From the NCBI GenBank assembly GCA_034437255.1, contig DAOTUH010000126.1, positions 19,198-83,197 of the forward strand: DNA of 64,000 nt, written 5' to 3'. The notes beneath the pieces are model-generated. The model had not been told where the DNA came from. It saw only the letters and a program-made list of their open reading frames with translations, and did not search any database. This document shows positions 995 through 62,762 of the stretch, piece after piece. Position numbers and translations under genes: made by a program. Every line of letters begins with the position of its first letter. Within the stretch, counting starts at the first letter, position 1. This stretch comes from Anaerolineae bacterium. Its GTDB lineage: Bacteria > Chloroflexota > Anaerolineae > B4-G1 > SLSP01.

Positions 995-2350
995 TTAGCC
1001 AGGATTTACAGCCCAAGTTCGAGGATCGCTGGGACAGCCGGCCACGCAAATCAGCAGATCGGGACAGACGTCACAGCGGCTCGGCGCTTCGACCCGTTCC
1101 CGATAGACGCGGAAGGCCTCGTGCTGCCAGATGGTGTCCCAGTCGTCCTGCAGGAGATTACCCGCGCTGCGATAGCGTCCGCGCGGCGGCACCACGGTCC
1201 CGTCCGGCTCGATGCGCGCAGCCACGTCACCTGCACAGCGCGGCCCCAGGCGAACCTGCGCCTTGAGCGGGGTGTCGGGATCGCGCGCCACGGGCGGCGC
1301 CCAGATAAAACGTGCCTGCGCCCCGTGGGCCACCTCCTCGACGCGATTAGCGACCTGCGGCATAGCCTCAGCAACGAAAGCCTCGTCCTCGCTCAAAGCC
1401 GGGTCCGCCGTCGCGTAGGCGACGAAGATGATGTTGTCCGCACCTATCTCCAGGAGCGAGATCACCGTCGGCTCCAGAGCGTCCAGCGTCGGCTCGATCA
1501 GCGGTACCTCGGCCACGGCGCAGAGCCCGCTGGTCTCCAGCCAGGCGAAGAGTTCGGTGGCCGCCACATGGTCGCCCTCACCGAGCAGCGCATCGTGCAG
1601 CGCGCCGTCGGTCGCCGCGTAGGGCAGCGTGACGTGATCGACGCCCGCCATGGCGAGGTCCGGGACGAACTCGGTGATATCCATCGCGCGCCCGCGCACG
1701 CCCGCGATAAGGCCCAGATCCTCGGCCCGCTCCACGGCACGTACGAGGTGCGCGCCTTCCGGCGCGACGGGCGCCAGGAACGTGACGTGCGGAATCCCGA
1801 CCTCCCACAGCCGGTCGAGCAGCGGCACGAGGTGCTCGGGCGATGCCAGCGGCACGGCGGCCTCCAGCGGCGCGATCAACTCCGCCGCCTCCGCCGAGAA
1901 AGGCGCCGACTCCAGGTTGAAGACGGGATACGTGTCCCCCGGTTGTAGGATCTGTGCGATCAGTCCCTGGACGCGCTCAATGTCGGCGCGCATGGTGGCC
2001 TCTGTTGCCCCCTTGAAGTTCTGTTTCAGCCGCCGCAGGATGGTAGCCTCGTCGTCGCCGTCCAGAAGACCCTTGACGATGAGCGTGCCCGTCAGCGTGA
2101 GGCGGGCCGCGGCCGTCGCATTTGCGATGAGCATGCCGCTGCCGTCGCGCTCCACGCGCAGGTGAAAGCGCGTGATGGTGCCGTCGTCGCTCTCCTGCAT
2201 AACGTGGGTGAGTCCCGGCTCCAGGGGCGGGGACGGTTCGGGACGTTGGACGTCAAACAACCGTTTTAGCCAATTCGATGGTGACATCATCTCCTCCTCT
2301 GAGAACAAGTCAAAGGTGATTCTACTGAAAAAAGGTTGTGCCTCACGCAA
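995..2350 (-). CDS. Radical-SAM/SPASM-family paralog with N-terminal PqqD-like RRE domain; CxxxCxxC motif absent, predicted catalytically degenerate
   Basis: N-terminal ITRFHLRVERDGSGMLIANATAAARL resembles a PqqD-like RiPP recognition element. The C-terminal CDVCPDLLICVAGCP is SPASM-like. No CxxxCxxC is present anywhere. Overall co-linear with the 3375-4772 gene. Confidence 0.6.
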   Translation of the reverse strand: MREAQPFFSRITFDLFSEEEMMSPSNWLKRLFDVQRPEPSPPLEPGLTHVMQESDDGTITRFHLRVERDGSGMLIANATAAARLTLTGTLIVKGLLDGDDEATILRRLKQNFKGATEATMRADIERVQGLIAQILQPGDTYPVFNLESAPFSAEAAELIAPLEAAVPLASPEHLVPLLDRLWEVGIPHVTFLAPVAPEGAHLVRAVERAEDLGLIAGVRGRAMDITEFVPDLAMAGVDHVTLPYAATDGALHDALLGEGDHVAATELFAWLETSGLCAVAEVPLIEPTLDALEPTVISLLEIGADNIIFVAYATADPALSEDEAFVAEAMPQVANRVEEVAHGAQARFIWAPPVARDPDTPLKAQVRLGPRCAGDVAARIEPDGTVVPPRGRYRSAGNLLQDDWDTIWQHEAFRVYRERVEAPSRCDVCPDLLICVAGCPSDPRTWAVNPG

Positions 2351-2440
2351 AGACGCCGCCGACCAAAGGTCGGACAGTCGCCAAGATTTTAAATTTGTCC
2401 TTACTTTTCTGAATATTAAAGCCAGCCTAGATCAATAAAA

Positions 2441-2513
2441 TCTACCATCTTATGAATTTCCTTTGCGTTCTTGGCGCCTTTGCGTGAGGTTGATGGTTAT
2501 TTCAGTGAAGTCA
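2441..2513 (+). repeat. Conserved ~72-nt element R, copy 1, containing mini-ORF MNFLCVLGAFA (2452-2487)
   Basis: About 93% identical to 58141-58213. Outer inverted repeat ACCATC...GATGGT. Internal direct repeat CCTTTGCGT x2. Confidence 0.5.
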
Positions 2514-2556
2514 AAGGGCAAAGGTAAAAACCGGATTATTGAGAAGCCTATGAATC

Positions 2557-6229: not shown

Positions 6230-6299
6230 CGGCGTTTCCTTGGATATTCTACGTCAACCATTCATAGATTTAACAGCAAAGGGCACCTAACCAGCACGT

Positions 6300-6450
6300 G
6301 TGTGGCTCGGTGGGACACCGGCCACAGCGCATCGTGTCAGCATTCGCACTGTGTGGCTCGGTGGGACACCGGCCACAGCGTATCGTGTTAGCATTCGCAC
6401 TGTGTGGCTCGGTGGGACACCGGCCAAAGCGTATCGTGTCAACATCCAGT
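6300..6450. repeat. Tandem direct repeat, 3 x 51 bp
   Basis: GTGTGGCTCGGTGGGACACCGGCCACAGCG(C/T)ATCGTGT(C/T)AGCATTCGCACT repeated three times with 1-2 mismatches. Contains the hairpin core CGGTGGGACACCG. Confidence 0.9.
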
Positions 6451-6452
6451 AC

Positions 6453-8261: not shown

Positions 8262-11156
8262 CTAGCGTGGTCGATGTCCCGTCAATCTCTCTCGCAGTTC
8301 GATAAACGCTTCGAGATCGCCTTCGGCGAGGAGGCGGGCCTGGTCGAGCCACGTGGACGTGTAACGGACGCGAATGCCGCTCTCGCGGAGTATAGCTTGA
8401 ATCTCCTCCGGCGTCAGGGCCGCCAGCTGCTCGAAGAGCGCGATGCCGGCCGCGTTGAGCAGCTTCTCGCTCTTTGGCCCCAGCCCCCAGATGCGCTGGA
8501 GGTCGTCGGGCTCCGTCAGCTTGCGCTCTTGCACCGGCTCCGGCTTGGCTGCCGGCACAGCAAAGGAGATCGCCGCGGTCGGCGGCGTGGGCATGCGCCA
8601 GCGGTAATCGTGCTGCATGGCCTGCTTGAAATCCTCCTGGATGCCGGACTTATCGTGGATCTTCCACTGATCGCCCGTCCAGCGGTAAAGCAGCAGCCCA
8701 CGGATCTGTTGTGCATACGGCCGCATGTTCCAACCATCGATCTCCTCGTAGATTTTGCGCACCCAGCCGATGTTAGCGTTGATCCACCCCTGCGACGCCG
8801 GATTGTCGCACGTGGGCGCGTTGTCCGGGCGACAGACGTGATTCGTCTCGGTGATGTAGACGGGCAGATCCTTCCACTTGTAGGGAATGCGCTCCATAAA
8901 CTGTCGATAGGTCTGGAAATCGAAGTAGTGATCGTTCAACAACGGATCGCCAAAGGTTTCCAGATGCGTGATGGCTTCCAGCGACGGTCCGTGCGTGTAG
9001 GCGTGCAGGATGAAACCATCCAGCGAATCGATGTTGTCCATCATCTTCTGGAAGTAATCTAAGGGCCGCCAGCGCACATTGCCCAGCAGGGGCATGGACG
9101 AAGAGTTGTAAGGGTCGACGGCGCCAGGACAGACCAAGGCGTTGGGCAGCACGTCCTTGATGGCAGCGTAGATCTTGTTGAAGGCCTCCGCGTAAAGCTC
9201 TGCCGTGATGTGTTGCTTAGGATGATGCAGCCCGCCCGGATGCTCGCTGGGATTGTTTTGCTCGTTGCCAATCTGGATCGTCCAGGTGTAGTCATCCGGC
9301 GAGAGATCGTCCCGCTTGAGGTAAATCTCAACCCAGCGCGCGCACGCCTGCGCGAACTCATCGTAGTGGCGGGATTCGGGCAGCGTGCCGCCGGGATGGT
9401 AGCCATGATTGAGACGTACGATGACACCGTAGTCCTTCTCCATCCAATCCTGGACGCGGTTGCGGATATCCTGATTCAGACCGACGTCCTGGGGACGCCG
9501 CCGTACTACCTCTGTGAAGAAGACCCAGCCCTTCTTCCCCCCGGCGTTGAAGAGATTGCGGATCGGGTCCCGCGTGTAGTGGTCGTCGCTAAGCTGGGCA
9601 GCATGCATGCCGAAGATGTGGGGCGAGAGCCCGCGATCTAGCCAGCCGTCGCGCGCCTGTACCCGCTGATCTTTCTGCTCGGGACGACGCACATACCAGG
9701 CCGCCACATGTCCCTCTCTCCGCGAGGGCGTCCGAACCTTGATCCATTTCTCTTGCTCGCCGATTTTGTTCCCCGTGACTGTAGGATCTTCCAGAGAGCG
9801 CAACACGGCACCATGCGGCACCCACCAGACCTGGACATGATCCGTTCCCGGCCCGCTGCGCACCCGCAGCCCGTACTCGGGGCTTTCCACGACAACGAAT
9901 CGAGCGGGCTCGCCGGACGGCGTCGGTTTTGGCTCAACCTCGGTCTCGAGCTTGAGATACCAGGCCGCCGTGTAGCCGCTCTCATCTTCCGCCGTCTGAA
10001 CGTGTAGCCACTCGTCGTGCTCGCCGATTTTGCGCCGCACCTGGTCGGCCGGTTCTAGCGCTTTAATGATCGCACCATCGGGCATCTGGGCGACGATGTC
10101 GTGCTCCGTGCCCGGCCCGCTGCGGAGCTTGAGCGGCATCTCTGGGCTTTCTACCACTAACAACAGCGTAGGCGTCGGCTTCTCCTTCTCCGGCAGCCGC
10201 AGATACCACGCCGCCGTGTAGCCTTGTTTCCCGTCCGGTGTCTTGACCTTGAGCCATTCCCCGTACTCGCCAATCTTACGGCGCACGTCGATGTCCGGCT
10301 CCAACGCCTTGAGCACCGTCCCGTCGGGCATCTCGGCGACAATCTCATGTTCCGTGTCCGGCCCGCTGCGCAACTTGAGGGGGGTCTCGGGGCTCTGGAC
10401 GACGACGGAGAGCGTCGGCTCCGGCTGTTCCTCCTCCGGCAGTTTCAGATACCAGGCAGCCACGTACCCGTTCTGACCGTTGTGCAGCCGCACCCACAGC
10501 CACTGACCGTGCTGCCCGACCTTCTTGAGCGTGACATCCACCTTTTCCAACGAACCCAGGACAGTCTCATGATCCACGCGCCCAACTTGCTCGCTGCCCA
10601 CGTAAGGCCTGGCCCGCACGTTCAGGAACCCAACCTCCGGGCTGTGCACTTGCACCTTCATGGTGGGCTTAGCGGGTGGTTCCGGCTCCACGCCACCCTC
10701 CGAAAACGGCAACAGATAGGGGCGAGGATTCACGATATCGTAGGGAAAATAGGTCTCGTTGCTTCCCGTCGCGCCATCTTTCTTAAGTGTCAGGTGAAGA
10801 TGCGCACCAAAGGAGTTCCCACTATTCCCGCCCAACCCGATCAGCTGCCCGGCCCGCACGGCCTGGCCTTCGATGACGACGACGGAGGAAAGATGCGCGT
10901 AGACGCTGGTGAAGCCATTGCCGTGCTGAACGCGAACCTGATTGCCGTAGGGTCTCTTGTTGGGATTGGAGTTACCATCAAGACTAACGCGACTCACGAA
11001 GCCATCGGCGACGGCATAGACCTCACTTCCTTCCGGCGCCTTGAAATCCAGCCCCTCGTGTCCAGGCAACCCAAACTTCTGGTAGAACTCCGGTCGGACA
11101 CCGAATTCCTGGGTGATCCTGTTAAACTCTGTCGGCCAACGCATACGAAAACTCAT
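8262..11156 (-). CDS. Multidomain cell-wall hydrolase: M23 peptidase + 4 SH3b-like repeats + clan GH-A glycoside hydrolase + C-terminal helix-hairpin-helix
   Basis: HEGLDF...HLHLT is an M23 signature. Four near-identical ~95-aa repeats end in AAWYLKLP. IGNEQN and YITETN resemble GH-A acid/base and nucleophile motifs. IWGLGPKSEKLLNAAGIALFEQLAALTPEEI is HhH-like. GGAGGG SD before the ATG at 11156. No signal peptide. Confidence 0.8.
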   Translation of the reverse strand: MSFRMRWPTEFNRITQEFGVRPEFYQKFGLPGHEGLDFKAPEGSEVYAVADGFVSRVSLDGNSNPNKRPYGNQVRVQHGNGFTSVYAHLSSVVVIEGQAVRAGQLIGLGGNSGNSFGAHLHLTLKKDGATGSNETYFPYDIVNPRPYLLPFSEGGVEPEPPAKPTMKVQVHSPEVGFLNVRARPYVGSEQVGRVDHETVLGSLEKVDVTLKKVGQHGQWLWVRLHNGQNGYVAAWYLKLPEEEQPEPTLSVVVQSPETPLKLRSGPDTEHEIVAEMPDGTVLKALEPDIDVRRKIGEYGEWLKVKTPDGKQGYTAAWYLRLPEKEKPTPTLLLVVESPEMPLKLRSGPGTEHDIVAQMPDGAIIKALEPADQVRRKIGEHDEWLHVQTAEDESGYTAAWYLKLETEVEPKPTPSGEPARFVVVESPEYGLRVRSGPGTDHVQVWWVPHGAVLRSLEDPTVTGNKIGEQEKWIKVRTPSRREGHVAAWYVRRPEQKDQRVQARDGWLDRGLSPHIFGMHAAQLSDDHYTRDPIRNLFNAGGKKGWVFFTEVVRRRPQDVGLNQDIRNRVQDWMEKDYGVIVRLNHGYHPGGTLPESRHYDEFAQACARWVEIYLKRDDLSPDDYTWTIQIGNEQNNPSEHPGGLHHPKQHITAELYAEAFNKIYAAIKDVLPNALVCPGAVDPYNSSSMPLLGNVRWRPLDYFQKMMDNIDSLDGFILHAYTHGPSLEAITHLETFGDPLLNDHYFDFQTYRQFMERIPYKWKDLPVYITETNHVCRPDNAPTCDNPASQGWINANIGWVRKIYEEIDGWNMRPYAQQIRGLLLYRWTGDQWKIHDKSGIQEDFKQAMQHDYRWRMPTPPTAAISFAVPAAKPEPVQERKLTEPDDLQRIWGLGPKSEKLLNAAGIALFEQLAALTPEEIQAILRESGIRVRYTSTWLDQARLLAEGDLEAFIELRERLTGHRPR

Positions 11157-20090: not shown

Positions 20091-20206
20091 GATCGTATCC
20101 TTGGCTATGGAAAATGCGCCACTTGAAGTGTGTCGGCCCAGATTCACCGAAGGTTCAAAAATAGTATAGCATAGATTTGAGGGCAAAACAATAGAGGTGT
20201 GGGAAG

Positions 20207-20262
20207 TGTTGCGTGTTGCGTATTGCGTGTTGCGTGTTGCGTGTTGCGTGTTGCGTGTTGCG
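20207..20262. repeat. Heptanucleotide microsatellite (TGTTGCG)x8, one unit TATTGCG
   Basis: Directly visible. Lies in the divergent intergenic region between the CHAT-SIR2 operon start and degV. Confidence 0.95.
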
Positions 20263-20386
20263 TGATGGTCTCTGTCGGGGTTTGACTTTGTAGGCGTACG
20301 ATGAGAGGATGCCGGGGCGGATGGGTGTCTTGAGTCTGGTGTGGAGTATAATAAGAATCGACAATAAGAGATCCAGGAAGGAGATT

Positions 20387-26582: not shown

Positions 26583-26680
26583 ATCTCGTCTGAGCCGCCC
26601 CCGGGAGCGCGGAGCCTGCCTGGAGAGGCCCGGGGCCGGGAGCATCATTGCGCGGCTTTTACCCCAATGCCAAAAGAGGC
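26583..26680 (+). repeat. GC-rich ~95-nt element F, copy 1
   Basis: About 85% identical to 31796-31895. Inverted repeat CCCCGGG...CCCGGGG. Ends in CTTTTACCCCAATG. Confidence 0.5.
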
Positions 26681-30183: not shown

Positions 30184-30332
30184 GTATCTGTTTAGTCTTC
30201 TGGGGTACGACGCACTTTCGCTGACGTTCACGAACCTGGGATTCCTAAACTATGCTCGTAAAATATTGTAGCCCGGTTTGTTTCGGTTCGTAAGTGCGTT
30301 GCACCTGGACGCTCACAAACCTAGACGGTTAC
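30184..30332 (+). repeat. Conserved structured element E, copy A (5' leader of BMP gene)
   Basis: Nested potential helices CTGTTTAG/CTAGACGG and GGTACGACGCAC/GTGCGTTGCACC. Ends 40 nt before the GTG start at 30374. Confidence 0.55.
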
Positions 30333-31471: not shown

Positions 31472-31795
31472 TCACTGGGGTGTGTTTCGTTTGAGTCGCG
31501 TGCGTATTGCGTGTTGCGTATTCTACGCGAGAAGCTATCTTAGCGATGCCCGGCTCATTCAGAATACACGTAGTTCGTTCGGGTGGAGGGGGGGGACGCA
31601 CGTCTGCTCCCTCCGCCCCTCCAGCCTAGGACAGAAAACGTGAGGGGCAATGCCGGCTCACCAGGGAAGAGTAAAAATCGGACACGGACGAACACAGAAA
31701 AACACGGCAAAAACAAAAAACGAAGCGAAGCCGTAGCGAAGCCGTGGCGAAGCCGTGATCGCAGTCCGTGTTCTGCCGTGTCCTAAAATGGCATG

Positions 31796-31895
31796 ACGGT
31801 AGAGTACGCTTGAGGCGCCCCCAGGAGCGCGGAGCCTGCCTGGAGAGGCACGGGGGCTGGGAGCATCATTGTGCGTCTTTTACCCAAATGTCTAA
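31796..31895 (+). repeat. GC-rich ~95-nt element F, copy 2
   Basis: Matches 26583-26680. Located inside the 505-nt spacer between the SBP and ATPase genes. Confidence 0.5.
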
Positions 31896-31976
31896 AATAG
31901 AACCCTCGTTGTAGTAGTGTTAGCTGCTGCCAGACATTGCCGTTGACGTTTTAGGTTCTATGAAGAGGAGAAATTT

Positions 31977-42972: not shown

Positions 42973-43121
42973 GTATCTGTTTAGTCTTCTGAGGTGCGAC
43001 GCACTTTCGCCGAAGTTCACGAGCCGAGGACTCCTAAACCATGCTCGGAGAACTTTGTAGCGCGGTTTATTTCGATCCGTAAGTGCGTTGCACCTGGACG
43101 CTCATAAACCTAAACGGTTGC
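42973..43121 (+). repeat. Conserved structured element E, copy B (5' leader of ABC ATPase gene)
   Basis: About 95% identical to copy C and about 85% to copy A. Ends 20 nt before the ATG at 43142. Confidence 0.55.
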
Positions 43122-46617: not shown

Positions 46618-46671
46618 GGCTGACGCAAGCTTTCTTAATGCTCCCCGCTCTCGTCAACCGCGTAGCCTAGT

Positions 46672-46900
46672 GGAGGCCGGGGGCGGGCACGGTGGGGACA
46701 CCGGCCCGAACGAGAAGGTAGGCGTGATGGGGAGGCCGGGAACGGGCACGGTGAGGACACCGGTCCGAACTAGAGAAGAGCGGGCGCGGTGGGGAGACTG
46801 GGGGCGGGCACGGTAGGGACACCGGCCCGAGCGAGAGAAGGGCGGGCGCGGTGGGGAGATCGGCCCGAACTTTAGGGACACCGGCTCGAGATACCCGTGG
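46672..46900. repeat. Tandem direct repeat, ~60 bp x 3.5
   Basis: Units GGAGGCCGGGGGCGGGCACGGTGGGGACACCGGCCCGAACGAGAAG.... Shares the core CGGTGGGGACACCGGCC with the 6300-6450 array. Confidence 0.9.
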
Positions 46901-47033
46901 GGACGACGCGATTGGGCTCCAGGAAGAGCGAGATATTGGCGGCGATGATCAGCGCACCGAGGGTGATCAACAGATAGTCCCAGAGATGACGGAGCGCACG
47001 CCGCCAGCGCGATGATAGACGGGGTCGTTTCAC
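46872..47033 (-). pseudogene. Truncated remnant (53 codons) of a YitT-like membrane protein gene, ending in the tandem array
   Basis: Strong GAGGAGG SD then a GTG at 47033. LITLGALIIAANISLFLEPNRVVPTGISS resembles the YitT/DUF161 N-terminus. The frame terminates inside repeat unit 4. Confidence 0.35.
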
Positions 47034-47228
47034 GTAGTTTCCTCCTCGTCGTACAAAATCATCAACGGATTTAGCGGGTTAAATACGAGTACGGACTTAC
47101 CAGCATGATCGTGGACTGCTTTGTGACTTTGGAAGGACATGCTCACAGGAGCGAGTCGCCCTTTGAATCTGTTGGGAAAGCTCGCACGTGTACTGAAGAA
47201 GACATTCGCGTCTGGGAAAACGGAGGGT

Positions 47229-47377
47229 GTATCTGTTTAGTCTTCTAAGGTGCGTCGCACTTTCGCCGACGTTCACGAGCCGGGGACTCCTAAACCATGC
47301 TCGGAGAACTTTGTAGCGCGGTTTGTTTCGATCCGTAAGTGCGTTGCACCTGGACGCTCACAAACCTAAACGGTTGC
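47229..47377 (+). repeat. Conserved structured element E, copy C
   Basis: Nearly identical to copy B. Lies 3' of the convergent CAP-domain gene and is not in a leader. Confidence 0.55.
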
Positions 47378-47384
47378 CGGAGGG

Positions 47385-48512
47385 TTAGCGGCGGCGCAGA
47401 AAGAGTGCGATGCCCAGAAGCCAGGCGATGCCCTGCAGGAGGAAGATGATCAGCACCGGCCAATCGGTGCCACCGTTGGATTCGACCCACGTTTCGGTGG
47501 GAAGCGGCGTCCACGTCGGTAGAGGCGTGATCTCGGCGCTCTCGGTTGTATCGAGCGGCGTCTGCGTCGGGAGCGGCGTGCTCTCCTCGACGGAGGGGAC
47601 GGGCCTTGTCGGGAGCGGCGTCGGCGCGGTCTCACCACCGGCGCCCTCGGGCGTGGATGTGGGCAACGGCGTGACTTCGGGCACCGCCGTCGTCTCGGGC
47701 AGCGGCGATTCTGTCGGCGCATCACCGGGAGACACCAGCCGAATCGTGTCCTCGCTGATCGTGGTTCGCCCTGCGCCATCCCGGAACTGTACGTAGACCG
47801 CGTAGCTCCCCGGTTCCGTGCCCTCCAACGTCCAGGGCACGAGTTCCTCCCAGGGCTGCCACGGTTCGCCGTCAAAATCGGGGCTGTTGCTGATGCGGAT
47901 CTCAATGGCCTCGCCGATCCGCGCGCCCTCGCCGAGCGGCTCGGCCTGCTCGTTGGTAAGGCGCAGCGCAACTTGTGGGGACTCCGTCACCTTGGCTCCA
48001 TCGTTGATGAAAATGGGGAGTACGCCAGGACGCGAGCCGAAGTCGACGACAAAGTAATTGACGCCCTGGGGATCGCTGGCGTAGCCCACGCCGACCTCGC
48101 GATAGCGCGGATCAACGAAGAACTTCCAGCGGTCCGGCTCCTCACGGAACCAGTTGAGGGCATTCTCCGCCGTTCCCAACCCGGCCCAGATGGTCTCATT
48201 GACCAACAAGCCGTTGTCCCAGGCCTGATAGCCCGCTTCCCGGATGCGCTGCTGGTACGTGGACCCGTCCGACCCCACCTGATCGATGCGGGCATTCTCG
48301 GCCATGTCGGTGGCGTGACGCTGGGCCGCGTTGGTCAAGAGCGTGGAGGAGGCCAGCGGCGGCAGGCCCTGATCCAGTCGCGCCTGGTTGATCAGGCGAA
48401 GAAAGAGCCGCGCCGGATCGTCCTGCGTCCGCGCGATGGGCCGACCTGCGTGCAGCCAGAGCAGACTGCCAAATAGAATGCTCGCCAAGATGATGCGCAG
48501 GGTCCGCCTCAT
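47385..48512 (-). CDS. CAP (SCP/PR1-like) domain protein with Pro/Thr-rich linker and C-terminal TM anchor
   Basis: CAP motifs HATDM...ENI..G...A...W..E and VGVGY...YFVVDFG. Signal peptide at M54. ATG 48512 overlaps the upstream stop (ATGA). Confidence 0.8.
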   Translation of the reverse strand: MRRTLRIILASILFGSLLWLHAGRPIARTQDDPARLFLRLINQARLDQGLPPLASSTLLTNAAQRHATDMAENARIDQVGSDGSTYQQRIREAGYQAWDNGLLVNETIWAGLGTAENALNWFREEPDRWKFFVDPRYREVGVGYASDPQGVNYFVVDFGSRPGVLPIFINDGAKVTESPQVALRLTNEQAEPLGEGARIGEAIEIRISNSPDFDGEPWQPWEELVPWTLEGTEPGSYAVYVQFRDGAGRTTISEDTIRLVSPGDAPTESPLPETTAVPEVTPLPTSTPEGAGGETAPTPLPTRPVPSVEESTPLPTQTPLDTTESAEITPLPTWTPLPTETWVESNGGTDWPVLIIFLLQGIAWLLGIALFLRRR

Positions 48513-49297
48513 ACGTGCTCCTCGGTCAAGACGGCTCTGAACTCGGTAATCAGCGCAGACGTGGCACCGATCAATGGATCGGACACCGCGTCCGTCCATG
48601 GGCCGCCAGACAGCCGCTCTACAGCGCCGCCCGCCTCTTCCACGAGGAGCACGGCCGCCGCCTGATCCCACGTCCCCAGATGTTGAGCCACGAAGAGATC
48701 AAGCCAGCCGGCAGCGACGTAAGCCATATTGAGCGCCGCCGAGCCCAGGCAACGCAGCGTGCGCGCCTCGACCAGCATCCGGCTGACCAGAGCGGCGTGC
48801 TGCTTGCGAAGATCATAGTCGCGCGGCCAATCCGTGGCAAAGACCATCTCCTCGACGCGGGTCCGGCCCGACGTGCGGAGCGATGCGCCGTTGAGCGTAG
48901 CCCCGCCGTTGCGGTAAGCCGCAAAACAATGATCGCGCAAGGGATCGTAAATCACGCCCACTGAGGGCTGCCCCGCGTCCAGCGCGGCGATGGAGACACA
49001 GAAATTCGGGTTGTTCCGCGAGAAGTTTGTAGTGCCGTCCAACGGATCCACGAACCAGCGCACCCGGCCCTCATGCGCGTCGGGGCCTGCCTCCTCCGAG
49101 GTGATGGCGTGGTCAGGAAAAGCCTCGTGCAGCCCCTGGATAATGATCGCTTCTGCCGCCAGGTCGGCCTCGGTGACGATGTCGCGGAAGCCCTTGGACG
49201 TGACCGCGTGCGCCGTCGCCCAACGCTCACCCAACTCGGCGCCCGCCTCCCGGGCAAGCCGCACCGCGACGGACATCCACTGTTCGTATTCGCTCAT
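48509..49297 (-). CDS. Inositol monophosphatase family protein
   Basis: WFVDPLDGTTNF and other IMPase motifs. Confidence 0.85.
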   Translation of the reverse strand: MSEYEQWMSVAVRLAREAGAELGERWATAHAVTSKGFRDIVTEADLAAEAIIIQGLHEAFPDHAITSEEAGPDAHEGRVRWFVDPLDGTTNFSRNNPNFCVSIAALDAGQPSVGVIYDPLRDHCFAAYRNGGATLNGASLRTSGRTRVEEMVFATDWPRDYDLRKQHAALVSRMLVEARTLRCLGSAALNMAYVAAGWLDLFVAQHLGTWDQAAAVLLVEEAGGAVERLSGGPWTDAVSDPLIGATSALITEFRAVLTEEHV

Positions 49298-50550
49298 GGC
49301 AGCTCCTCAGCCGCTCGCGCGCACGCTTCCTGGGCGGTGGTCAACACGTCGAGCACACTTTGGTCGGTGTTCAGATTGAAGAGGCTCCGCACCAGCGCAG
49401 CGCGGCACTCCGGCTGACCGGTGACCGGCCTCCACGTTGACCAGCCATTCTGCTCGGCTGCAGTCAGCGTCATGGCAAGCAGTTGTCGTTTTGATGCACG
49501 CAGCGTTTCGTCAGCCTGCCAGGACTCCGCCAGCGAACGCCGGACCGGCAGGTAATTCGTCTGTTCAAACCAGATGGCCTGCGCTTCAGGGGAGAGCATC
49601 CAAATGGCGACCTCCAGGGCAGCATCGTGCTGTGAGCCATCGGAGGACAGAGGCAACACGGCCGGCCCGCGCCAGAGCGAGCCGCCTGTGTCGGAGACCG
49701 GGGGCAATGTCATCACCCCCAGAGGAAAATTCCACCCGCTTAACACACGGTTGACCACCTCAGGCTCCTGTAGACTAGAAGCGATAAGCAATGCAAGGGT
49801 GCTGTCTCCAAACTGGTCGATCCCGGCATCCAGAAATTCGTAAACCCGCCCACATCCCCGGCTGAGCACGTCATGCCCAACGCTGGCTGCGGCGACCGCA
49901 CCGGAACTCTCGAAGTTATAGTGCCCATGGGCGTCAACGATGGATTCGCCGCCTGTGGTCAGCAAGCTCAACAGGACATCGGCCTGCGCCGGGATACCCA
50001 GACCTATCTGTCCGTTTCCCATGTCCGTGGCAGCACAGGCCGTGTCGAGCAGATCCGACGCCGTCGCGGTCTCCGCCTCGTAGCCCAGATCTCGCACCCA
50101 GGCCTGATTGTAATAAAGCACGCTGGTCGCCAGCCCCAGCGGGAAGGCGACCAACGTTCCATCATCTTCGTACAGAGCCTCCGCCATCGGCAGTAGATCA
50201 CGCCGTATGGAAGAAGGCAGCGCCAAGGAGACCATCCTATCATGAAACTGGGGGACCGTATCGGCTCCGGTCACGACGAGATCGGGTTGCTGTGCCGCCG
50301 GCAACGTGTTCAGCTTCTCTAGAATCTCTTCCTGGTATTCTACAATCAACGTTGGCCCGTCGGGATGCCCAGCGTCGAACCGGTCTCCCAATGCCTCAAG
50401 CGCCGCCCGTTCTGCCCCGGCGAAGGTGTGCCAGAGCACAACGATATCCGGCCCCGGGCCCAAAGCCGATATGGTGTTATTACAGCCTGCCATGAGAAGA
50501 AGCACCATGGCGCCGATGATCAAACGGTATACCTTACAGATATGTCTCAT
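49294..50550 (-). CDS. ABC transporter substrate-binding lipoprotein (solute-binding family 1)
   Basis: Lipobox LLMAGCNN. 418 aa periplasmic binding protein pattern. Confidence 0.8.
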   Translation of the reverse strand: MRHICKVYRLIIGAMVLLLMAGCNNTISALGPGPDIVVLWHTFAGAERAALEALGDRFDAGHPDGPTLIVEYQEEILEKLNTLPAAQQPDLVVTGADTVPQFHDRMVSLALPSSIRRDLLPMAEALYEDDGTLVAFPLGLATSVLYYNQAWVRDLGYEAETATASDLLDTACAATDMGNGQIGLGIPAQADVLLSLLTTGGESIVDAHGHYNFESSGAVAAASVGHDVLSRGCGRVYEFLDAGIDQFGDSTLALLIASSLQEPEVVNRVLSGWNFPLGVMTLPPVSDTGGSLWRGPAVLPLSSDGSQHDAALEVAIWMLSPEAQAIWFEQTNYLPVRRSLAESWQADETLRASKRQLLAMTLTAAEQNGWSTWRPVTGQPECRAALVRSLFNLNTDQSVLDVLTTAQEACARAAEELP

Positions 50551-50608
50551 GTCTTAAACTCACTGTTCTTTTGTCTCGACAGATGACGTGCTTCGACGGC
50601 CCATCATA

Positions 50609-52213
50609 TCACAGATCGGTGCGATGGTTTATCCGCTTTAGGCGCCGCATGACCACGTCACGCAGCAACGTCAATTCCTCAAGGCCCATGTAACGCATTA
50701 ACATGATGTAGATTAGCATGCCCAGGCCGCTCGCCAATCCCACCTGCATCAGTACGCCCTCGAAGCCGGTCTGACCGAGGCGCTTGACGGCCCAGTTCCC
50801 GGCGAAGACAAAGGGCGCCATTACGACCGAAGCGCCCAGCGAAAGGCGCACCGTGTGTCCCAGGCCGTAGTCACTCAAATTCCCCACTTCGCGAATAAAA
50901 AGCGCCAACATCAACAACGCATGGAGGGTCAATTTGATAGAATTGGCCAGGATCAGCAGGGGGAGCGTCAGCTGGCCCGCGACCGTGGGCAAAAAAGCCA
51001 ACAGAGAGTAGATGGCCGTGGTCACCACCCCAACGAGCGCCGGCGTCCAGGTGTTCTTGCGGGCGTAGAAAGCAAAGATCAACGGCTGATCAAGTGCGGC
51101 AAAGATCAGCCCCAATAGATTGAATCGTAGTGCGACGGCGACGGCTTGCGTATCCGCCACCATAAAGTTTCCCCGTTGGAAGAGCAGCGCCACCAGAGGC
51201 TCAGCGAGGACGAGCATCAGTGAGGCAGCCGGCAAGACCAGGATGAGCACCAACCGCAGGCCCTGGGCCAGGGTCGCCCGGAACTGGGTCTCCTCCTCAT
51301 CGGTGGCGTAGCGGGAGAGCGTGGGCAGGATGGCGATGGAAATGGCGGTCACCACCATGCCCAGCGGAAACTGGATGATAGTGGCCGCGTACTTCATCCA
51401 CGCGATGCCGCTGGGTCCGGTCCGAGAGGCCAGGTTGAAGCTGAGCGCCACGGCCACTTGATCGACGATCAAGCCCAGGCCGATGGGCAGGTACAACGCG
51501 GCGATGGTGCGTAGGGCTGGGTGCCCCACAAAGGGGAAGATAAAACGCAGATGTGCGTCCCGGAGATCACCGAGCTGGAAGAGCACCTGCATCAGACTGC
51601 CCGCCAGGAGGCCCACGGCCAGGCTGAGCGCGCCTAGACGGCTCCGCCCCAGCAGAACCACGACGATGACCAACGTCGCGTTGGAAACCGCGCCCAGAAA
51701 CGCCGGACGTTTGAAGCGTTGAAGGGCATAAAGCACGCCGGAGAGCAAACCGGCGGTGTTTAGGAAGAGAATGGCAGGTGTGGTGATGCGGATCATCTGC
51801 GCCGCCAGCGTCAGGTACTCAGTCGTCAGCCCGGCGCCCAGGATTCGCGCCACGGCGGGCGCAGTCACCTCGATGATCAGGATGAAGGCGCCCAGAAAGA
51901 TCGCCAAGAGGGAGATCAGCAGGCTGATCAACCGCCAGAGCTCTGAACGGCGCTCTTCGGGCGTATAATCAGAGAAAACCGGCACCAGGGCCGAGCTCAA
52001 CATGCCCCCAACCAGCAGATCGTAGAGCATGATCGGCACTTGCGCCGCCACGTCGAAGGCGCTGACCGCGCCGCCGGCGCCGAAGAAGTACGACTTGGCC
52101 ATCTCGCGCACCAGGCCCAGCACCCGGCTGCTCACATTGCCGATGGAAATCAGCGCAGCGGCGCGGGTGACCTGCCGTGTTTCACTTGAGATGATCGTCG
52201 TTTCTTGACCCAT
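50609..52213 (-). CDS. murJ: Lipid II flippase MurJ (MviN)
   Basis: 534 aa, 14 TM segments. N-terminal RAAALISIGNVSSRVLGLVRE is MurJ-typical. Confidence 0.9.
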   Translation of the reverse strand: MGQETTIISSETRQVTRAAALISIGNVSSRVLGLVREMAKSYFFGAGGAVSAFDVAAQVPIMLYDLLVGGMLSSALVPVFSDYTPEERRSELWRLISLLISLLAIFLGAFILIIEVTAPAVARILGAGLTTEYLTLAAQMIRITTPAILFLNTAGLLSGVLYALQRFKRPAFLGAVSNATLVIVVVLLGRSRLGALSLAVGLLAGSLMQVLFQLGDLRDAHLRFIFPFVGHPALRTIAALYLPIGLGLIVDQVAVALSFNLASRTGPSGIAWMKYAATIIQFPLGMVVTAISIAILPTLSRYATDEEETQFRATLAQGLRLVLILVLPAASLMLVLAEPLVALLFQRGNFMVADTQAVAVALRFNLLGLIFAALDQPLIFAFYARKNTWTPALVGVVTTAIYSLLAFLPTVAGQLTLPLLILANSIKLTLHALLMLALFIREVGNLSDYGLGHTVRLSLGASVVMAPFVFAGNWAVKRLGQTGFEGVLMQVGLASGLGMLIYIMLMRYMGLEELTLLRDVVMRRLKRINHRTDL

Positions 52214-52368
52214 GACAAGAAGACATTCTACCGGCTTTCAGACGATTGGCAAGAGATCAACGACGCCACAGATCCACGTCTTATGAAAAAGCCCCCGGAA
52301 GCGTGTGTCAAAGGGCAAAGACCTCAACGTGATCGAGGGTCTTTTCCAAAGCACCGTCCGCGTTCGAG

Positions 52369-53676
52369 TCAGGCGAGGACGCCGGCTGCCTCGGCGCGAG
52401 CGTTCTCCTCGCGCGCGATGCGACGCCCCTCGTCCTCGTCCACGCGGGTCAGCAGGAAGATGCCCCCCAGGAAGAAAATGATGAGTGAGACGATGCTCAG
52501 CCGGCTCTCGCCGGCCAACTGCGAGACGATGCCGAAGAGTAACGGTCCCACGATGCCCGCGAACTTGCTGGAGATGTCGTAGAAGCCGAAGAACTCCGCG
52601 CTGCGAGCCTTGGGCGCCATCTGGCTGTAAAGACTACGGCTGAGGCCCTGCGTCCCGCCCTGGACCATGCCGACGGCGAAGGCCAGTGCCCAGAAATGCC
52701 ACGCGGTGCTCATAAAGTAGCCACCCACGGTGATGAGCGCGTACCAGCCCAGCCCCAGGATAATGGCGCGTTTGGTGCCGAGCCACTTGCTGATCTTTCC
52801 AAAGAGCAGGGCGAACGGAATCCCCACGAATTGGGTCAAGAGCAACGCGCCGACGAGATCCAGCGTGCCGATACCGATTTCCTGGCCGTAGATGGTGGCC
52901 ATCTTGATGATGGTGCCGATGCCATCGTTGTAGAGCCAGAACGCGATAAGGAACTTGAGGAGCTCTTGATACTTGCGGATATCCTGGAAGGTATGGCCCA
53001 GGCGCCGGAAGCCTGCGATCCACGGCGTGACGCCCTCGCCAATGCCGGTCTTGTTAGCCGGCGGTTCGGGGACGCGCCGCAGCAAGGGCACGGTGAAGAT
53101 CGCCCACCAGATGGCCACGGTGAGGAAAGAGAGCCGCGTGCCCCAGTTGTTGCCGGTGATGAACCAGATCATGGCGATGTTGACAGCCAGCAGCAACCCA
53201 CCGCCAACGTATCCCAGCGCGTAGCCTTTAGTCGAGACGTAGTCTCGTTCGTCCTCGTCCGTGATGTGGGAGAGCAGAGCATCGTAGAAGATGTACGAGC
53301 CGCCGAACCCGACGGAGCCGAAGAAAAACAGGGCCATGGCCAGCATCCAGTCGCCCGTGTTGATGAATACCATGAGCGTGGTCGCCACAATGCCTATCGC
53401 AGCAAAGAGTGACAGAAGCCGCTTCTTCCCGCCGGTATAGTCGGCGATGCTGCCCAAGATGGGTGCCAGTAGCGCGACGACGAGCAGGGAGAGCGAGTTG
53501 ACATAGCCCCAATACGCCGTCGCCACGTTGCCCGCGAAGACACCCTGCGCGATCTGACCGAAATAGGTGGGCAGCACTGCCGCTTCGACCGTCGTCGAAA
53601 AGGCCGAACTGCCCCAATCGTAGAGACACCAAGCGTTCGTGATTTGTTTGTGGTTGTACTGCTGCTCTTTGTTCAT
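52369..53676 (-). CDS. MFS transporter (UMF1-like)
   Basis: About 435 aa polytopic. AAGGAAG SD before the ATG at 53676 (MNKEQQ...), preferred over the track's 53766. Confidence 0.85.
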   Translation of the reverse strand: MNKEQQYNHKQITNAWCLYDWGSSAFSTTVEAAVLPTYFGQIAQGVFAGNVATAYWGYVNSLSLLVVALLAPILGSIADYTGGKKRLLSLFAAIGIVATTLMVFINTGDWMLAMALFFFGSVGFGGSYIFYDALLSHITDEDERDYVSTKGYALGYVGGGLLLAVNIAMIWFITGNNWGTRLSFLTVAIWWAIFTVPLLRRVPEPPANKTGIGEGVTPWIAGFRRLGHTFQDIRKYQELLKFLIAFWLYNDGIGTIIKMATIYGQEIGIGTLDLVGALLLTQFVGIPFALLFGKISKWLGTKRAIILGLGWYALITVGGYFMSTAWHFWALAFAVGMVQGGTQGLSRSLYSQMAPKARSAEFFGFYDISSKFAGIVGPLLFGIVSQLAGESRLSIVSLIIFFLGGIFLLTRVDEDEGRRIAREENARAEAAGVLA

Positions 53677-53879
53677 GTGTCTTCCTTGTGGAGTATGAAA
53701 ATAACAACGAAAGCATTGTACTGTAGGGGAGTATAGACGCAAGTGAAATCTGGATACTGATAGCACTCAAGCATCCACTAGAATTATGGACAAATCCGCC
53801 GTTCCAGCTATAATAACACTCCGATGAAATGATGAAATAAGGTATGCCCGTCTCCCACACCGATCAAAGGAGATCACAC

Positions 53880-54215
53880 ATGAAATTGACCACAGAGAAG
53901 TTCAAGAACGCTACGCTGATCCGCATTGAAGGTCGTATTGACAGCCAGACCGCGCCGGAACTGGAAACCGCCCTGACAGACATCATGGACGACGGACGCT
54001 ACAAAATTGTGCTGGACATGAATGAGGTGGAGTTCACCTCGAGCGCCGGATTGCGCGTGCTGATCAGTGCGCAGAAGAAATGCAAGCACCTGAATCGAGG
54101 TGAGATCGTGCTGGCCGACGTCCCGGAACGCATCGAGAAGGCCCTCGATCTGGCGGGCTTGCTGCCCATCTTCCGCATTACTGATGACGTATTGCACGCC
54201 GTAGGCAACATCTGA
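53880..54215 (+). CDS. STAS-domain anti-sigma-factor antagonist (RsbV/SpoIIAA-like)
   Basis: FTSSAGLRVLIS phospho-Ser region. AAAGGAG SD before the ATG at 53880. Confidence 0.85.
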   Translation: MKLTTEKFKNATLIRIEGRIDSQTAPELETALTDIMDDGRYKIVLDMNEVEFTSSAGLRVLISAQKKCKHLNRGEIVLADVPERIEKALDLAGLLPIFRITDDVLHAVGNI

Positions 54216-54293
54216 GATCGTTTTTTTCCGTCTTAGCGAGGGACCGCCCATTTGTCTTACAAGCAGCCCCCCACGACCTGTTGATCAAGCCTC

Positions 54294-54737
54294 ATGACTA
54301 AGAAGAGAGCAACCTTCACCGCTCGCTTTGAGAACCTCGCGCTGATTGACGCGCTGGCTGCCGAAGCCGCGGCCGCGGCCGGATTGGACGTACAAGCCAC
54401 TTATGGCGTCGAGATGGCCGTCGATGAAGCATGTTCCAATATCATCGAACACGCCTATGGCGGCGAATCCGACGAAGTTATCGAATATACGCATGAGATC
54501 AAAAAAGACCGTCTGATCATTACATTGCGCGATTACGGCGAGCCGTTCGATCCTAGCTGCGTCGCCGAACCGGATCTGTACTCAGATGTCGAAGAGCGGA
54601 ATGTGGGCGGCCTGGGATTTTTCTTTATATGTCAACTGATGGATGAAGTGGACTTTGAATTCTCCCCGGACCAAGGCAACCTATTGACGATGGTGAAGCA
54701 CAGGCCTGCCGCCGGAAACCGTGAGCGCGTAGCATGA
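54294..54737 (+). CDS. Anti-sigma regulatory factor Ser/Thr kinase (RsbW/SpoIIAB-like, HATPase_c)
   Basis: EACSNIIEHAY N-box. GGLGFFFICQLMDEV G-box. Confidence 0.8.
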   Translation: MTKKRATFTARFENLALIDALAAEAAAAAGLDVQATYGVEMAVDEACSNIIEHAYGGESDEVIEYTHEIKKDRLIITLRDYGEPFDPSCVAEPDLYSDVEERNVGGLGFFFICQLMDEVDFEFSPDQGNLLTMVKHRPAAGNRERVA

Positions 54738-56776
54738 GAACGTGGCTGCGCACCCTCGCCCGGCGACTGTTCCCCGAGATTGAATCCTTGGGACCGCGCG
54801 AGCGCACCTACAGCCTTGCGGACATCACCGGGGTGCTTTATGCGTCACCGTTAGCCGTGGTAGGCCTGATCTGGCTGATCACCGTCACCGATCTTACCCT
54901 ATTCCTCGAGGCGTGGTCTCTCCTGCTCCTGCTGCTGGGGTTGCTCTTTATCTTCGAGTGGCTCGATTTCTTCGTCTTCGTCGAGGTCACGCCGGGTATT
55001 TACGCGGATTGGCGCTGGTCCCTCTGGAGCGTTATCACGTGGTCGGCCGTACTGATCCTCGGTCCTATGACGCTCTGGCTGACAACGCTCTGGCGAACCA
55101 TCGCGTTCATCCGAAAATGGCAACGAGCCAAGGTCAAGGATTGGCGGTGGAATATCTCCCGGAACTTCGCCATCGACATCGCCTCGGTGACTTTTAACGG
55201 ACTCGTTGCACTCTATCTTTATCAGAGGTGGGGTGGGCAAATCCCTCTGCCTGGTCTGAGCCTGCTGGACTTACTGCCGGCGCTTTACGCGATGCTGGTT
55301 TGGCTCTTACTCTCCGTCCTTCTCTGGACGCCACTTCTGGCGCTCTTCAGCACCTCCAAGGAGTTCGCCTGGGCCCAAAATCCCTGGGTTACCTTCATCC
55401 GCTACATGGGGCTGACCGTGGGCTGGCACCTGTTGATGGATCCCTTCGCTATTCTCGCGGCCGGTCTGTACGCCGAGTACGACATAGGCGGCTACTCGCT
55501 CTTCATCCTGATCCTGCTAATGGCCGGATTACTGGCGCACCAGCTGAGCCAGGCCGTCGAACGGAGCCAGCTCCGTTCCCGTGAGCTGGAAAAACTGGAA
55601 CGCCTGGGGCGCGCCCTTATCAACATGCCGCCGGATGCCTCCCGGCTCTCCGAGATTCTGGCAGAACATCTCTGCAACATGTTTCCCTATGGCCAGATCG
55701 AGATCCGGTGTTTTCCCGATACCACGCTGTTGCACACGCCCGACGATTGGTCCCCCGTACCCGAAGGCGCGTGGTCATGGTTGCAGACGACCTGCGAAGC
55801 CCAAGTCTTCCAACCCGAAACGACGACGCCCTGGGCCGAGACGCTTGAACACAAAGCCGTGATCCTGGCGCCCATCGTGACGCAAGATAGCCGCGTTCCG
55901 CTGGGCGGTATCTATCTCGCCCGCTACCGCGACACCGACAGCATCGCCAATTTGCTGCCGGCCGTCCAGACGTTGACGGCTCAGATTGCATCGGCCCAGC
56001 AACAGGCCCAGGCCTACCGGCGGACGTTGGCCTTGCAACAAGCCGAGCAAGAGTTGCGCGTTGCGGGGCAGATCCAGGCCAGTTTTTTGCCGCGCGAGTT
56101 ACCACATATCCCAGGCTGGGAAATCACGGCGAGCCTGCGTCCGGCGCGCGAGACCTCTGGCGACTTTTACGACGTGATCCCGCTTCCCAACGGACGCTTC
56201 GGCATCCTCATCGCCGACGTGGCCGGGAAGGGCACCGGCGCCGCGCTCTACATGGCCCTCAGCCGCACGCTGCTACGCACCTACGCGCTCCAGTATCACA
56301 CGCGCGCTGACTACGTTCTACGCGTGGCGAACCGCCGCATCTTGATGGACACCGACACCGATCTCTTCGTCACCGTCTTCTACGGGGTACTTGATCCCAT
56401 GACGGGTACACTGCGCTACGGTAACGCCGGTCATATCCCACCCTACGTGCTGCGTGCCGGGGTGAACGCCGCGTCCCAGGGGTTGATCCGCACCGGAATG
56501 CCCTTGGGCCTCTACGAAGGCGAGAACTGGCGCGAGGAAGAGACGACGCTTGACGCGGGAGACACGCTGATTCTTTACACGGATGGCGTCACCGACGCAG
56601 AGAATGCAGAAGGAACTTTCTTCGGACACGAGCGTCTGCTCGACAGGGCCCAGGCTCATGCCGGATCTCCCGCGTCCGCACTCCAAGACGCCCTTCTCTC
56701 CGAGGTATACGGATTTGTCGGTGAAGGCATGCAATCCGACGACGTTACACTGATGGTTCTGTCAAGGCAAAAATGA
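54734..56776 (+). CDS. Membrane-integral PP2C (SpoIIE/RsbU-type) Ser/Thr phosphatase
   Basis: About 8 N-terminal TM helices. C-terminal GDFYDV...ADVAGKG...LYTDGVTDA PP2C motifs. Confidence 0.85.
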   Translation: MRTWLRTLARRLFPEIESLGPRERTYSLADITGVLYASPLAVVGLIWLITVTDLTLFLEAWSLLLLLLGLLFIFEWLDFFVFVEVTPGIYADWRWSLWSVITWSAVLILGPMTLWLTTLWRTIAFIRKWQRAKVKDWRWNISRNFAIDIASVTFNGLVALYLYQRWGGQIPLPGLSLLDLLPALYAMLVWLLLSVLLWTPLLALFSTSKEFAWAQNPWVTFIRYMGLTVGWHLLMDPFAILAAGLYAEYDIGGYSLFILILLMAGLLAHQLSQAVERSQLRSRELEKLERLGRALINMPPDASRLSEILAEHLCNMFPYGQIEIRCFPDTTLLHTPDDWSPVPEGAWSWLQTTCEAQVFQPETTTPWAETLEHKAVILAPIVTQDSRVPLGGIYLARYRDTDSIANLLPAVQTLTAQIASAQQQAQAYRRTLALQQAEQELRVAGQIQASFLPRELPHIPGWEITASLRPARETSGDFYDVIPLPNGRFGILIADVAGKGTGAALYMALSRTLLRTYALQYHTRADYVLRVANRRILMDTDTDLFVTVFYGVLDPMTGTLRYGNAGHIPPYVLRAGVNAASQGLIRTGMPLGLYEGENWREEETTLDAGDTLILYTDGVTDAENAEGTFFGHERLLDRAQAHAGSPASALQDALLSEVYGFVGEGMQSDDVTLMVLSRQK

Positions 56777-56862
56777 GCCTCGTGCGTCGCTGTAATGTAA
56801 TGAGGCGCGGACATGATCCAGCGTGCTTCGCAACAAACTCATATCGAAAGGATGGTTGATCC

Positions 56863-57879
56863 ATGAACATCTTAGTCACCGGTGGGGCCGGCTACATCGG
56901 CAGTCACACCTGCGTCGAGCTGTTGAACGCCGGGCATGACGTCGTGGTCGTCGATAACCTCGCCAACAGCAAGCGGGAATCTCTGCGGCGAGTGCAGGAG
57001 CTGACCGGGAGGCCGCTCACGTTCCACAAAGCCGATCTTCGGGATCGTGCGGCGCTAGACGCGGTCTTCGCGGCGACCCCCATCGACGCGGTGATTCACT
57101 TCGCCGGGCTCAAAGCCGTGGGCGAGTCCGTGGAAAAGCCGCTGACTTACTATCACAACAACGTCACGGGCACACTGGTGCTCTGCGACGTGATGCGAAC
57201 GCACGACGTGGACGACATTGTCTTCAGCTCGTCGGCCACGGTCTACGGCGATCCTGAGGAGGTGCCCATCCCGGAGACTGCGCCGCTGGGGCCGACTAAT
57301 CCCTACGGGCGCACCAAGTGGATGATCGAGGAGATTCTGCGCGACTTGCACGGCGCCGATCCGGCCTGGAACATCGCCTTGCTACGCTACTTCAATCCGG
57401 TCGGGGCGCATCCCAGTGGGCGCATCGGCGAGGATCCCAGCGGCATCCCCAACAACTTGCTCCCATACATCGCGCAGGTCGCCGTGGGCAAGCTCGACGA
57501 GCTGCGCGTCTTCGGCGCCGATTATCCCACCCACGATGGGACCGGCGTCCGCGATTACATCCATGTGGTGGATCTGGCCGTGGGCCATCTCCGCGCGCTG
57601 GACAAGCTGACCACCGATCCCGGCGTCGTGACCTACAATCTGGGCACCGGTCAGGGCTACAGCGTGCTTGACGTCGTCCAGGCCTTCGAGCGCGCATCGG
57701 GACAGGAGATCCCCTACCGGATCACGGGCCGGCGTCCCGGCGACGTGGCGACCAGCTACGCGGACCCCAGCAAGGCCGGAGAAGAGCTGGGCTGGGAAGC
57801 GGAGCGCGGTATCGAGGAGATGTGTGCCGACGTCTGGCGCTGGCAGTCCAACAATCCGAACGGGTACGAGGAAACCTGA
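56863..57879 (+). CDS. galE: UDP-glucose 4-epimerase
   Basis: [19 protein letters not shown]...YGRTK catalytic YxxxK. Confidence 0.9.
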
Positions 57880-58016
57880 ACAAGGCGCCGTCTGCCGGAT
57901 GGACTTGCAGTTTCAGATCAGCACATCACTTAAAAAGCACCGATACTGACGCGCGCCATCTGATACGAGAACAAAATAACGGTCAACTCGCAACCTTGGC
58001 TGCCATGAAAAAAGGT

Positions 58017-58116
58017 CCAAAACTCGGAGTTTTAGTGGTTTACCCCCTACATCTAGTGATTTTGGTTACGAAAAATCTACATGTAGTGTCAAGTTCCGGA
58101 AAACTCCGAGTTTTCC
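58017..58116. repeat. Inverted pair of 15-bp near-palindromes AAAACTCSGAGTTTT separated by ~60 bp
   Basis: 58017-58035 and 58097-58116 are reverse complements. Between them lies a CTACATCTAGTG / CTACATGTAGTG repeat. Confidence 0.7.
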
Positions 58117-58133
58117 CAGTTATTTCAGTGCAG

Positions 58134-58215
58134 TCAAAATTTACCATCTTATGAATTTCCTTTACGTTCTTGGCGGCTATGCATGAGGTTGATGGTTATT
58201 TCAGTGCAGTCAACA
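58134..58215 (+). repeat. Conserved ~72-nt element R, copy 2, with mini-ORF MNFLYVLGGYA (58151-58186) and 19-bp flanking direct repeat
   Basis: Matches 2441-2513. GTTATTTCAGTGCAGTCAA occurs at 58119-58137 and 58195-58213. Confidence 0.5.
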
Positions 58216-58250
58216 GTAGGCCAGGAAAAGTATATTAACAAATGCTCGGA

Positions 58251-58320
58251 GCCCCCGTCTCGGGGGCGGTCTCCCTAAAACCGAGAGGTTCGCGATTAGC
58301 CGTCCCCGAGACGGGGACGG
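58251..58320 (+). other. Two GC hairpins that are also mutually complementary (CCCCCGTCTCGGGGG ... CCCCGAGACGGGG)
   Basis: Read directly. In the 630-nt AT-rich spacer upstream of the cyclase gene. Confidence 0.4.
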
Positions 58321-58509
58321 GAAGCGGAGGGTGTATAAGGCTAACGTAAAGAAACTTTTACGGACGTACTTAGTAATTCAGTTCTCCCAGGAGAGCCAAA
58401 GATTAGGCTCAATCAGGCTGGTAAGTAACTTATCCCAACCCTCCGGCTCATCGTCTTACTTGTCACCAGTATCCCAAAGTCACGATCACAAAGCTGAAAC
58501 GAGGCACCG

Positions 58510-62757: not shown

Positions 62758-62762
62758 GGGAG

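Follow-up and report, generated by a model that had tools for sequence, protein, structure and literature searches.

Short repeats of the MITE type have been described in several bacterial groups, among them the Correia or NEMIS elements of Neisseria, ERIC or IRU in the enterobacteria, RUP in Streptococcus pneumoniae and Nezha in the cyanobacteria. Such elements are non-coding, 100 to 200 nt long, and bounded by long imperfect terminal inverted repeats, which allow them to fold into a hairpin; a dinucleotide of the target is duplicated on insertion. They lie between genes, close to gene starts, occur as nested or abutting copies, and are places at which assemblies break. Correia elements have also been described as signals for the processing, stability or termination of mRNA. 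The IS30 family is known for targeting inverted repeats and for a junction in which two inverted repeats are spaced by 2 bp. Another kind of short intergenic sequence is the leader-peptide attenuator, as found upstream of trp, his and erm, with a very short ORF beginning with ATG, a ribosome-binding site, regulatory codons, alternative hairpins and a terminator.

The window, which is the whole stretch of 64,000 nt of Anaerolineae DNA analysed here, contains two conserved intergenic stretches that resemble the MITEs in each of the traits listed for them. Each is very probably the right arm of a separate copy of a non-coding MITE of 199–201 nt, referred to below as family C. The elements are short and free of a transposase gene, they have terminal inverted repeats and a target duplication, their copies are dispersed, and an insertion polymorphism was found for a second element, A. 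There is no sequence similarity to Correia, ERIC, RUP or Nezha, and the host belongs to the Anaerolineae (Chloroflexota), a group for which no description of MITEs was found in the literature, either under this name or under Chloroflexi. The duplicated dinucleotide can have any sequence here, whereas it is TA in Correia, ERIC or IS630-derived elements. Unlike in the MITEs named above, one terminus of 19 nt is common to several families with unrelated interiors. The conserved stretches are thus a real but ordinary finding, and biologically they are a selfish repeat.

When compared within the window, positions 2437–2514 and 58136–58213 align without gaps over 78 nt and are 92% identical (72/78). 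The flanking 21- and 22-mers have exactly two matches each in the 64-kb window at up to three mismatches, with 0.00 expected from 100 shuffles. The preliminary description had reported a conserved repeat in two copies, at 2441 and 58134, and this is borne out; none would be expected by chance. It had also correctly read an 11-codon frame in each copy, as well as the inverted hexamers ACCATC (2444–2449) and GATGGT (2492–2497). The length of about 72 nt that it assigned to the conserved unit has to be revised. Homology continues leftwards, and once copies from other contigs are aligned, the unit comprises 199 nt (2316–2514).

In this complete copy, C1, which lies between an SDR gene and a radical-SAM paralogue, positions 2317–2357 pair with 2473–2513 as an imperfect terminal inverted repeat of about 41 nt. 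Because the one is the inverted complement of the other, 2316–2514 is a single element, and the stretch noticed before (2441–2513) is its right arm, corresponding to the right 40% of C1. As RNA or DNA, it forms a single long hairpin (−61.9 kcal/mol, z −4.9). Four distinct copies of C are available, namely C1 and those at loci L045, L032 and L007. After removal of nested inserts before alignment, they measure 199–201 nt and are 82–90% identical from end to end; as they are alike over their full length, the conserved unit is about 200 nt and not 72.

The contigs of sister strains used here come from strains 99.8% identical to the window, include those of the MAG GCA_964457985.1 and of microbial-mat metagenomes, and were found by exact-protein look-ups. 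Microbial-mat samples with this species include PRJEB25599. The cyclase and the radical-SAM paralogue of the window have no exact-protein record, and the cyclase locus was reached by homology search. An identical C1 occupies the same site in the sister-strain contigs L043 and L044. As the sister strains carry C1 at the same place, an empty site for C itself was not found. The flanks are imperfect in two C copies (CT/CA in L045 and CC/CG in L032). Roughly 90 kb of sequence from this species contain three C loci and two A loci, and a further C together with A is present in L007. The sole reading frame of C is the 11-codon ORF, so that the element has no coding capacity and is without a transposase gene. 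A metagenome scan with the C-specific 20-mer GAGGTTGATGGTTATTTCAG returned three unrelated, AT-rich chance matches only, a blastn comparison of the full element with a plasmid collection returned no match, and a tRNA/tmRNA scan returned nothing.

Table 1. Features of elements C and A in the window (positions count from its first nucleotide).
Feature	Position	Strand	Basis or remark
Complete C copy (C1), 199 nt	2316..2514	+	terminal repeats, hairpin fold, end-to-end homology
Target-site duplication AG of C1, left copy	2314..2315	.	read from sequence, scored as duplication
Target-site duplication AG of C1, right copy	2515..2516	.	read from sequence, scored as duplication
Mini-ORF in C1, 11 codons, MNFLCVLGAFA*	2452..2487	+	judged incidental
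MITE A, 142 nt	57996..58137	+	termini TTGGCTGCCATGAAAAAAGG and GTTATTTCAGTGCAGTCAA; interior differs from C
Right 19-nt terminus of A (left "target-site duplication" copy of the preliminary description)	58119..58137	+	19-mer GTTATTTCAGTGCAGTCAA
C2, right fragment (copy 2 of the preliminary description)	58138..58213	+	reconstruction from L045
Mini-ORF in C2, MNFLYVLGGYA*	58151..58186	+	sequence
Right 19-nt terminus of C2 (right "target-site duplication" copy of the preliminary description)	58195..58213	+	19-mer GTTATTTCAGTGCAGTCAA

Around copy 2, the right terminus of C comes 57 nt after that of A. Both elements have their terminal repeats in common and differ in their interiors. Like C, A folds as a hairpin (−48.6 kcal/mol, z −6.2), and it has homologues at L007, L022, L016, L002, L006 and L025. 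The arrangement can be read from the sister MAG, where the region upstream of the cyclase gene (L045) consists of a left part of C (9361–9486), A (9487–9628) and a right part of C (9629–9704). The two outer parts together rebuild a C of 200 nt. The left part ends in ...GATCAATAAAA, the right part begins with AATTTACCATC..., and intact C reads CAATAAAATTTACC, which means that A has inserted into C at CAATAA[AA] and duplicated AA (flanks AA/AA). In L007, A lies directly behind the left terminus of C, with GG/GG as its flanks, and the whole composite is flanked by GCG/GCG. The other C copies are uninterrupted at both of these positions, so that filled and empty sites are available for A.

Copy 2 is therefore the C upstream of the cyclase gene, split by a nested A, and its left half is absent from the window. 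The 19-bp repeats that had been seen on either side of copy 2 do exist; their interpretation as a target-site duplication does not stand, since they are the right termini of the nested A and of C. Much the same applies to the suggestion of a small mobile element, which was right as to the kind of sequence and wrong as to its anatomy: the 72 nt are the right arm of a 199-nt MITE, and the true duplication is 2 bp long. In the sister strains, the epimerase locus (L031, L032, L034) has A next to a full C, with CC between the two.

The window joins two loci inside A, and this is why it lacks the left half of C2. Positions 46863–58137 correspond to the epimerase locus of the sister strains at 99.8%, positions 57996–64000 correspond to their cyclase locus (L045), likewise at 99.8%, and the two matches overlap exactly in A (57996–58137). 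The sister MAG has two identical A copies, one with the flanks CC/CC at the epimerase locus and one with AA/AA at the cyclase locus, and the A of the window has the hybrid flanks CC/AA. Such a pattern is typical of homologous recombination between the two A copies, and would arise equally from a chimera in which the assembler took a wrong path through an exact repeat of 142 nt. In both cases, the placing of copy 2 between the epimerase and the cyclase is a secondary state, and gene-neighbourhood inference across 57996–58137 should not be trusted without long reads. In a related species (L046, GCA_964612845.1), a cyclase of 76% identity is followed by a 2606-aa protein, STAS, HATPase and SpoIIE; the two regions that meet in the window are thus neighbours in that species too, in the opposite order. 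Short metagenome contigs (L035–L039, L044) break inside the elements, as is expected for multicopy repeats. Repeats of this kind break and mis-join metagenome assemblies of Anaerolineae.

The terminus TTGACTNNNCTGAAAWAA, which is the left end read inwards, delimits many elements of 77–205 nt whose interiors are unrelated; they come from at least five Anaerolineae MAGs. A scan with the corresponding right-end 19-mer, covering one genome per species, gave seven loci in JBNGCW01, nine in CAZCPK01 and two in CAYVKR01; the 19-mer is also present once in L007, a contig of 1.7 kb. The remaining matches of the scan are singletons within coding sequence of unrelated taxa, and they are about as frequent as chance would give for an 18-base pattern. 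At the Anaerolineae loci, the 19-mer always forms the right end, with the inverted complement as the left end, and several families are represented; the 19-nt terminus is kept in both arms of all elements. Scans of viral contigs gave two chance matches to the terminus, both inside coding sequence, and none to the ORF core.

Target duplications accompany these termini. Identical flanks of 2 or 3 bp were found in 21 of 26 non-redundant elements, with 2 bp in 17 of them (binomial P about 2.5e-19), compared with 0/26 in a control in which the flanks were shifted by 2 bp. The duplicated sequences vary and include AG, CC, GG, TA, TG, CG, AC and AA. At four independent loci, a right terminus abuts a left terminus with 2 bp in between, namely CC at L032 (10938–10944), AA at L006 (6717–6723), TA at L016 (909–915) and TG at L026 (6552–6558). 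These four abutments suggest that insertion is targeted to the ends of resident elements.

The mode of mobilisation may be pictured as follows. A putative transposase, supplied in trans, would recognise the 19-nt termini, and the element would be inserted between genes, or within or next to resident copies, which apparently would be preferred as targets. Staggered cuts of 2 bp would then lead to the duplication of 2, occasionally 3, bp of any sequence. In its 2–3-bp duplication without fixed sequence, and in the 2-bp abutments of right and left ends, the system is reminiscent of the IS30 family, a possible source of the transposase, although the termini found here do not seem to resemble the IS30 inverted repeats. 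The loci compared contained neither an IS30-type transposase nor a full-length IS with these termini, and no autonomous partner in the form of a transposase gene bounded by them. Two intervals between a pair of termini were considered as autonomous IS and rejected on their gene content: L028 5331–7023 encodes a response regulator and a GTPase, and L019 6720–7476 encodes an SSB.

A broader proposal is that the 19-nt terminus marks a previously undescribed, class-wide superfamily of modular MITEs that targets resident ends and reshuffles gene neighbourhoods through recombination between copies. This is possible rather than probable. If it were true and the junction in the window were real, recombination would have put the adenylate-cyclase gene behind the epimerase operon. 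The conserved terminus offers a way to search for the transposase and to catalogue mobile DNA in a phylum that has been little studied.

The preliminary description had also considered a leader-peptide attenuator and an sRNA. An attenuator, in which translation of the ORF controls the downstream gene, or a functional small peptide, is highly improbable, even if the ORF is very short, begins with ATG, is intergenic and lies upstream of and on the same strand as a gene at two of three loci, ending about 324 nt before the start of the cyclase gene and about 55 nt before that of the NTP-transferase gene. All five sequence variants keep the ATG, the frame and the TGA. The survival of the frame through nine point changes and no indels is weak evidence and not significant (estimated chance about 0.1–0.2). 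With the majority sequence MNFLCVLGAFA as the reference for these variants, copy 2 differs by C5Y, A9G and F10Y and one synonymous change, L007 by F3S, G8C and A11V, and L034 by A9V. The resulting eight nonsynonymous events to one synonymous event, mostly at codon position 2, speak against constraint on the peptide. Three of the four differences between the two window copies inside the ORF are nonsynonymous second-position changes, which contradicts the earlier impression of mainly conservative substitutions. Moreover, change in the ORF region is no slower than in the remainder of the 78 nt, and no Shine–Dalgarno motif is present in the 15 nt before the ATG (AAAATCTACCATCTT). At the first site, the ORF is antisense to both neighbours, which are on the minus strand: the SDR gene, whose end is at 2557, and the radical-SAM paralogue, with its start at about 2290. 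In contrast to known attenuators, regulatory codons are lacking, no alternative terminator or antiterminator was found, and neither the unit nor the sequence after it has a terminator-like site. The three downstream genes are functionally unrelated, and the sequence belongs to a transposable repeat. For a structured small RNA or a cis-regulatory RNA formed by the 72–78-nt unit, the 92% conservation between two intergenic sites and the outer 6-bp inverted repeat could be cited. It is nevertheless very unlikely, as the minimum free energy of the 78 nt is no better than that of shuffles on either strand (z −0.27 to +0.79), and a T-to-G change (ACCAGC) in the outer stem of the epimerase-locus copies L031, L032 and L034 is left uncompensated. 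The Rfam scan proposed earlier gave no match at the gathering score across the whole window or at E ≤ 1 for both loci, and the unit is not enclosed by a promoter and terminator pair. Recent common descent of the repeat copies explains the conservation, over the full 199 nt. Accordingly, the 11-codon ORF and the ACCATC/GATGGT repeat look like accidental features of the subterminal sequence of a MITE, and annotation of the mini-ORF as a gene or leader peptide should be avoided.

That the repeat spread by segmental duplication or recombination, or that it is of a different class, for instance REP/BIME or integron attC, has hardly any probability. The elements often abut in mosaic arrays, which gives them a superficial likeness to BIMEs or cassette arrays. 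Segmental duplication is at odds with the sharp boundaries at the terminal repeats and the varying direct duplications of 2–3 bp mentioned above, and also with the nesting of A in C at two separate positions, where the duplications differ. By inspection, the termini have no attC core sites (RYYYAAC and GTTRRRY). Elements of 140–200 nt with long terminal repeats are unlike REPs of 20–40 nt, and the gene lists of the loci show no integrase or RAYT-type gene beside the arrays. Integron attC and REP/BIME were rejected on inspection of the termini and on the target duplications. A further reading would add to the MITE explanation and not replace it: copies of the element may also affect neighbouring genes through an internal promoter or through an mRNA hairpin acting in processing, stability or termination. 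At many loci, the elements occupy the short spacers between co-oriented genes, and their ends lie 20–60 nt from a start codon, for example 25 nt in C1 of the window, 27 nt in L032, 21 nt in L022 and 22 nt in L006. The full elements form very stable hairpins, and since they fill such spacers, they would in many cases be co-transcribed, in the form of long hairpins. In C1, a sigma-70-like match (TTCAGA-16-TAAAAT) in the AT-rich centre points at the radical-SAM paralogue; matches to a consensus are, however, no evidence of function. The orientation of the elements to the downstream gene differs between loci, and in the epimerase-locus copy another repeat interrupts the promoter-like centre, which faces away from the NTP-transferase gene. 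A preference for gene starts over gene ends was rejected, because the elements are equally near upstream stop codons, so that their proximity to genes reflects the short spacers. Regulatory exaptation is thus rather unlikely, being possible but unsupported.

Several other repeats were observed. Another family, MITE-like and about 150 nt long, with the termini GTATCTGTTTAG and CTAAACGGTTRC, is present three times in the window (30184–30332, 42973–43121 and 47229–47377); L032 11029–11186 and L031 18581–18710 belong here as well. A 158-nt relative, counted as a third repeat family beside C and A, is the insert carried by the epimerase-locus C of the sister strains, where it is flanked by CTTA on both sides. 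A direct repeat of 85 nt (26591–26675 and 31811–31896), whose copies are 86–90% identical and 5.2 kb apart, is GC-rich with an AT-rich tail and had no match in the whole-window Rfam scan. Intergenic tandem repeats of 51 nt (three units) and of 59–62 nt, located at 6299–6451 and 46662–46890, have units built on GC-rich hairpin cores, for example CGGTGGGACACCGGCC and GGCACGGTGGGGACACCGGCCCG. The heptamer TGCGTGT (or TGCGTAT) is repeated in runs at 20203–20268 and 31501–31522, two intergenic sites of the window that lie far apart.
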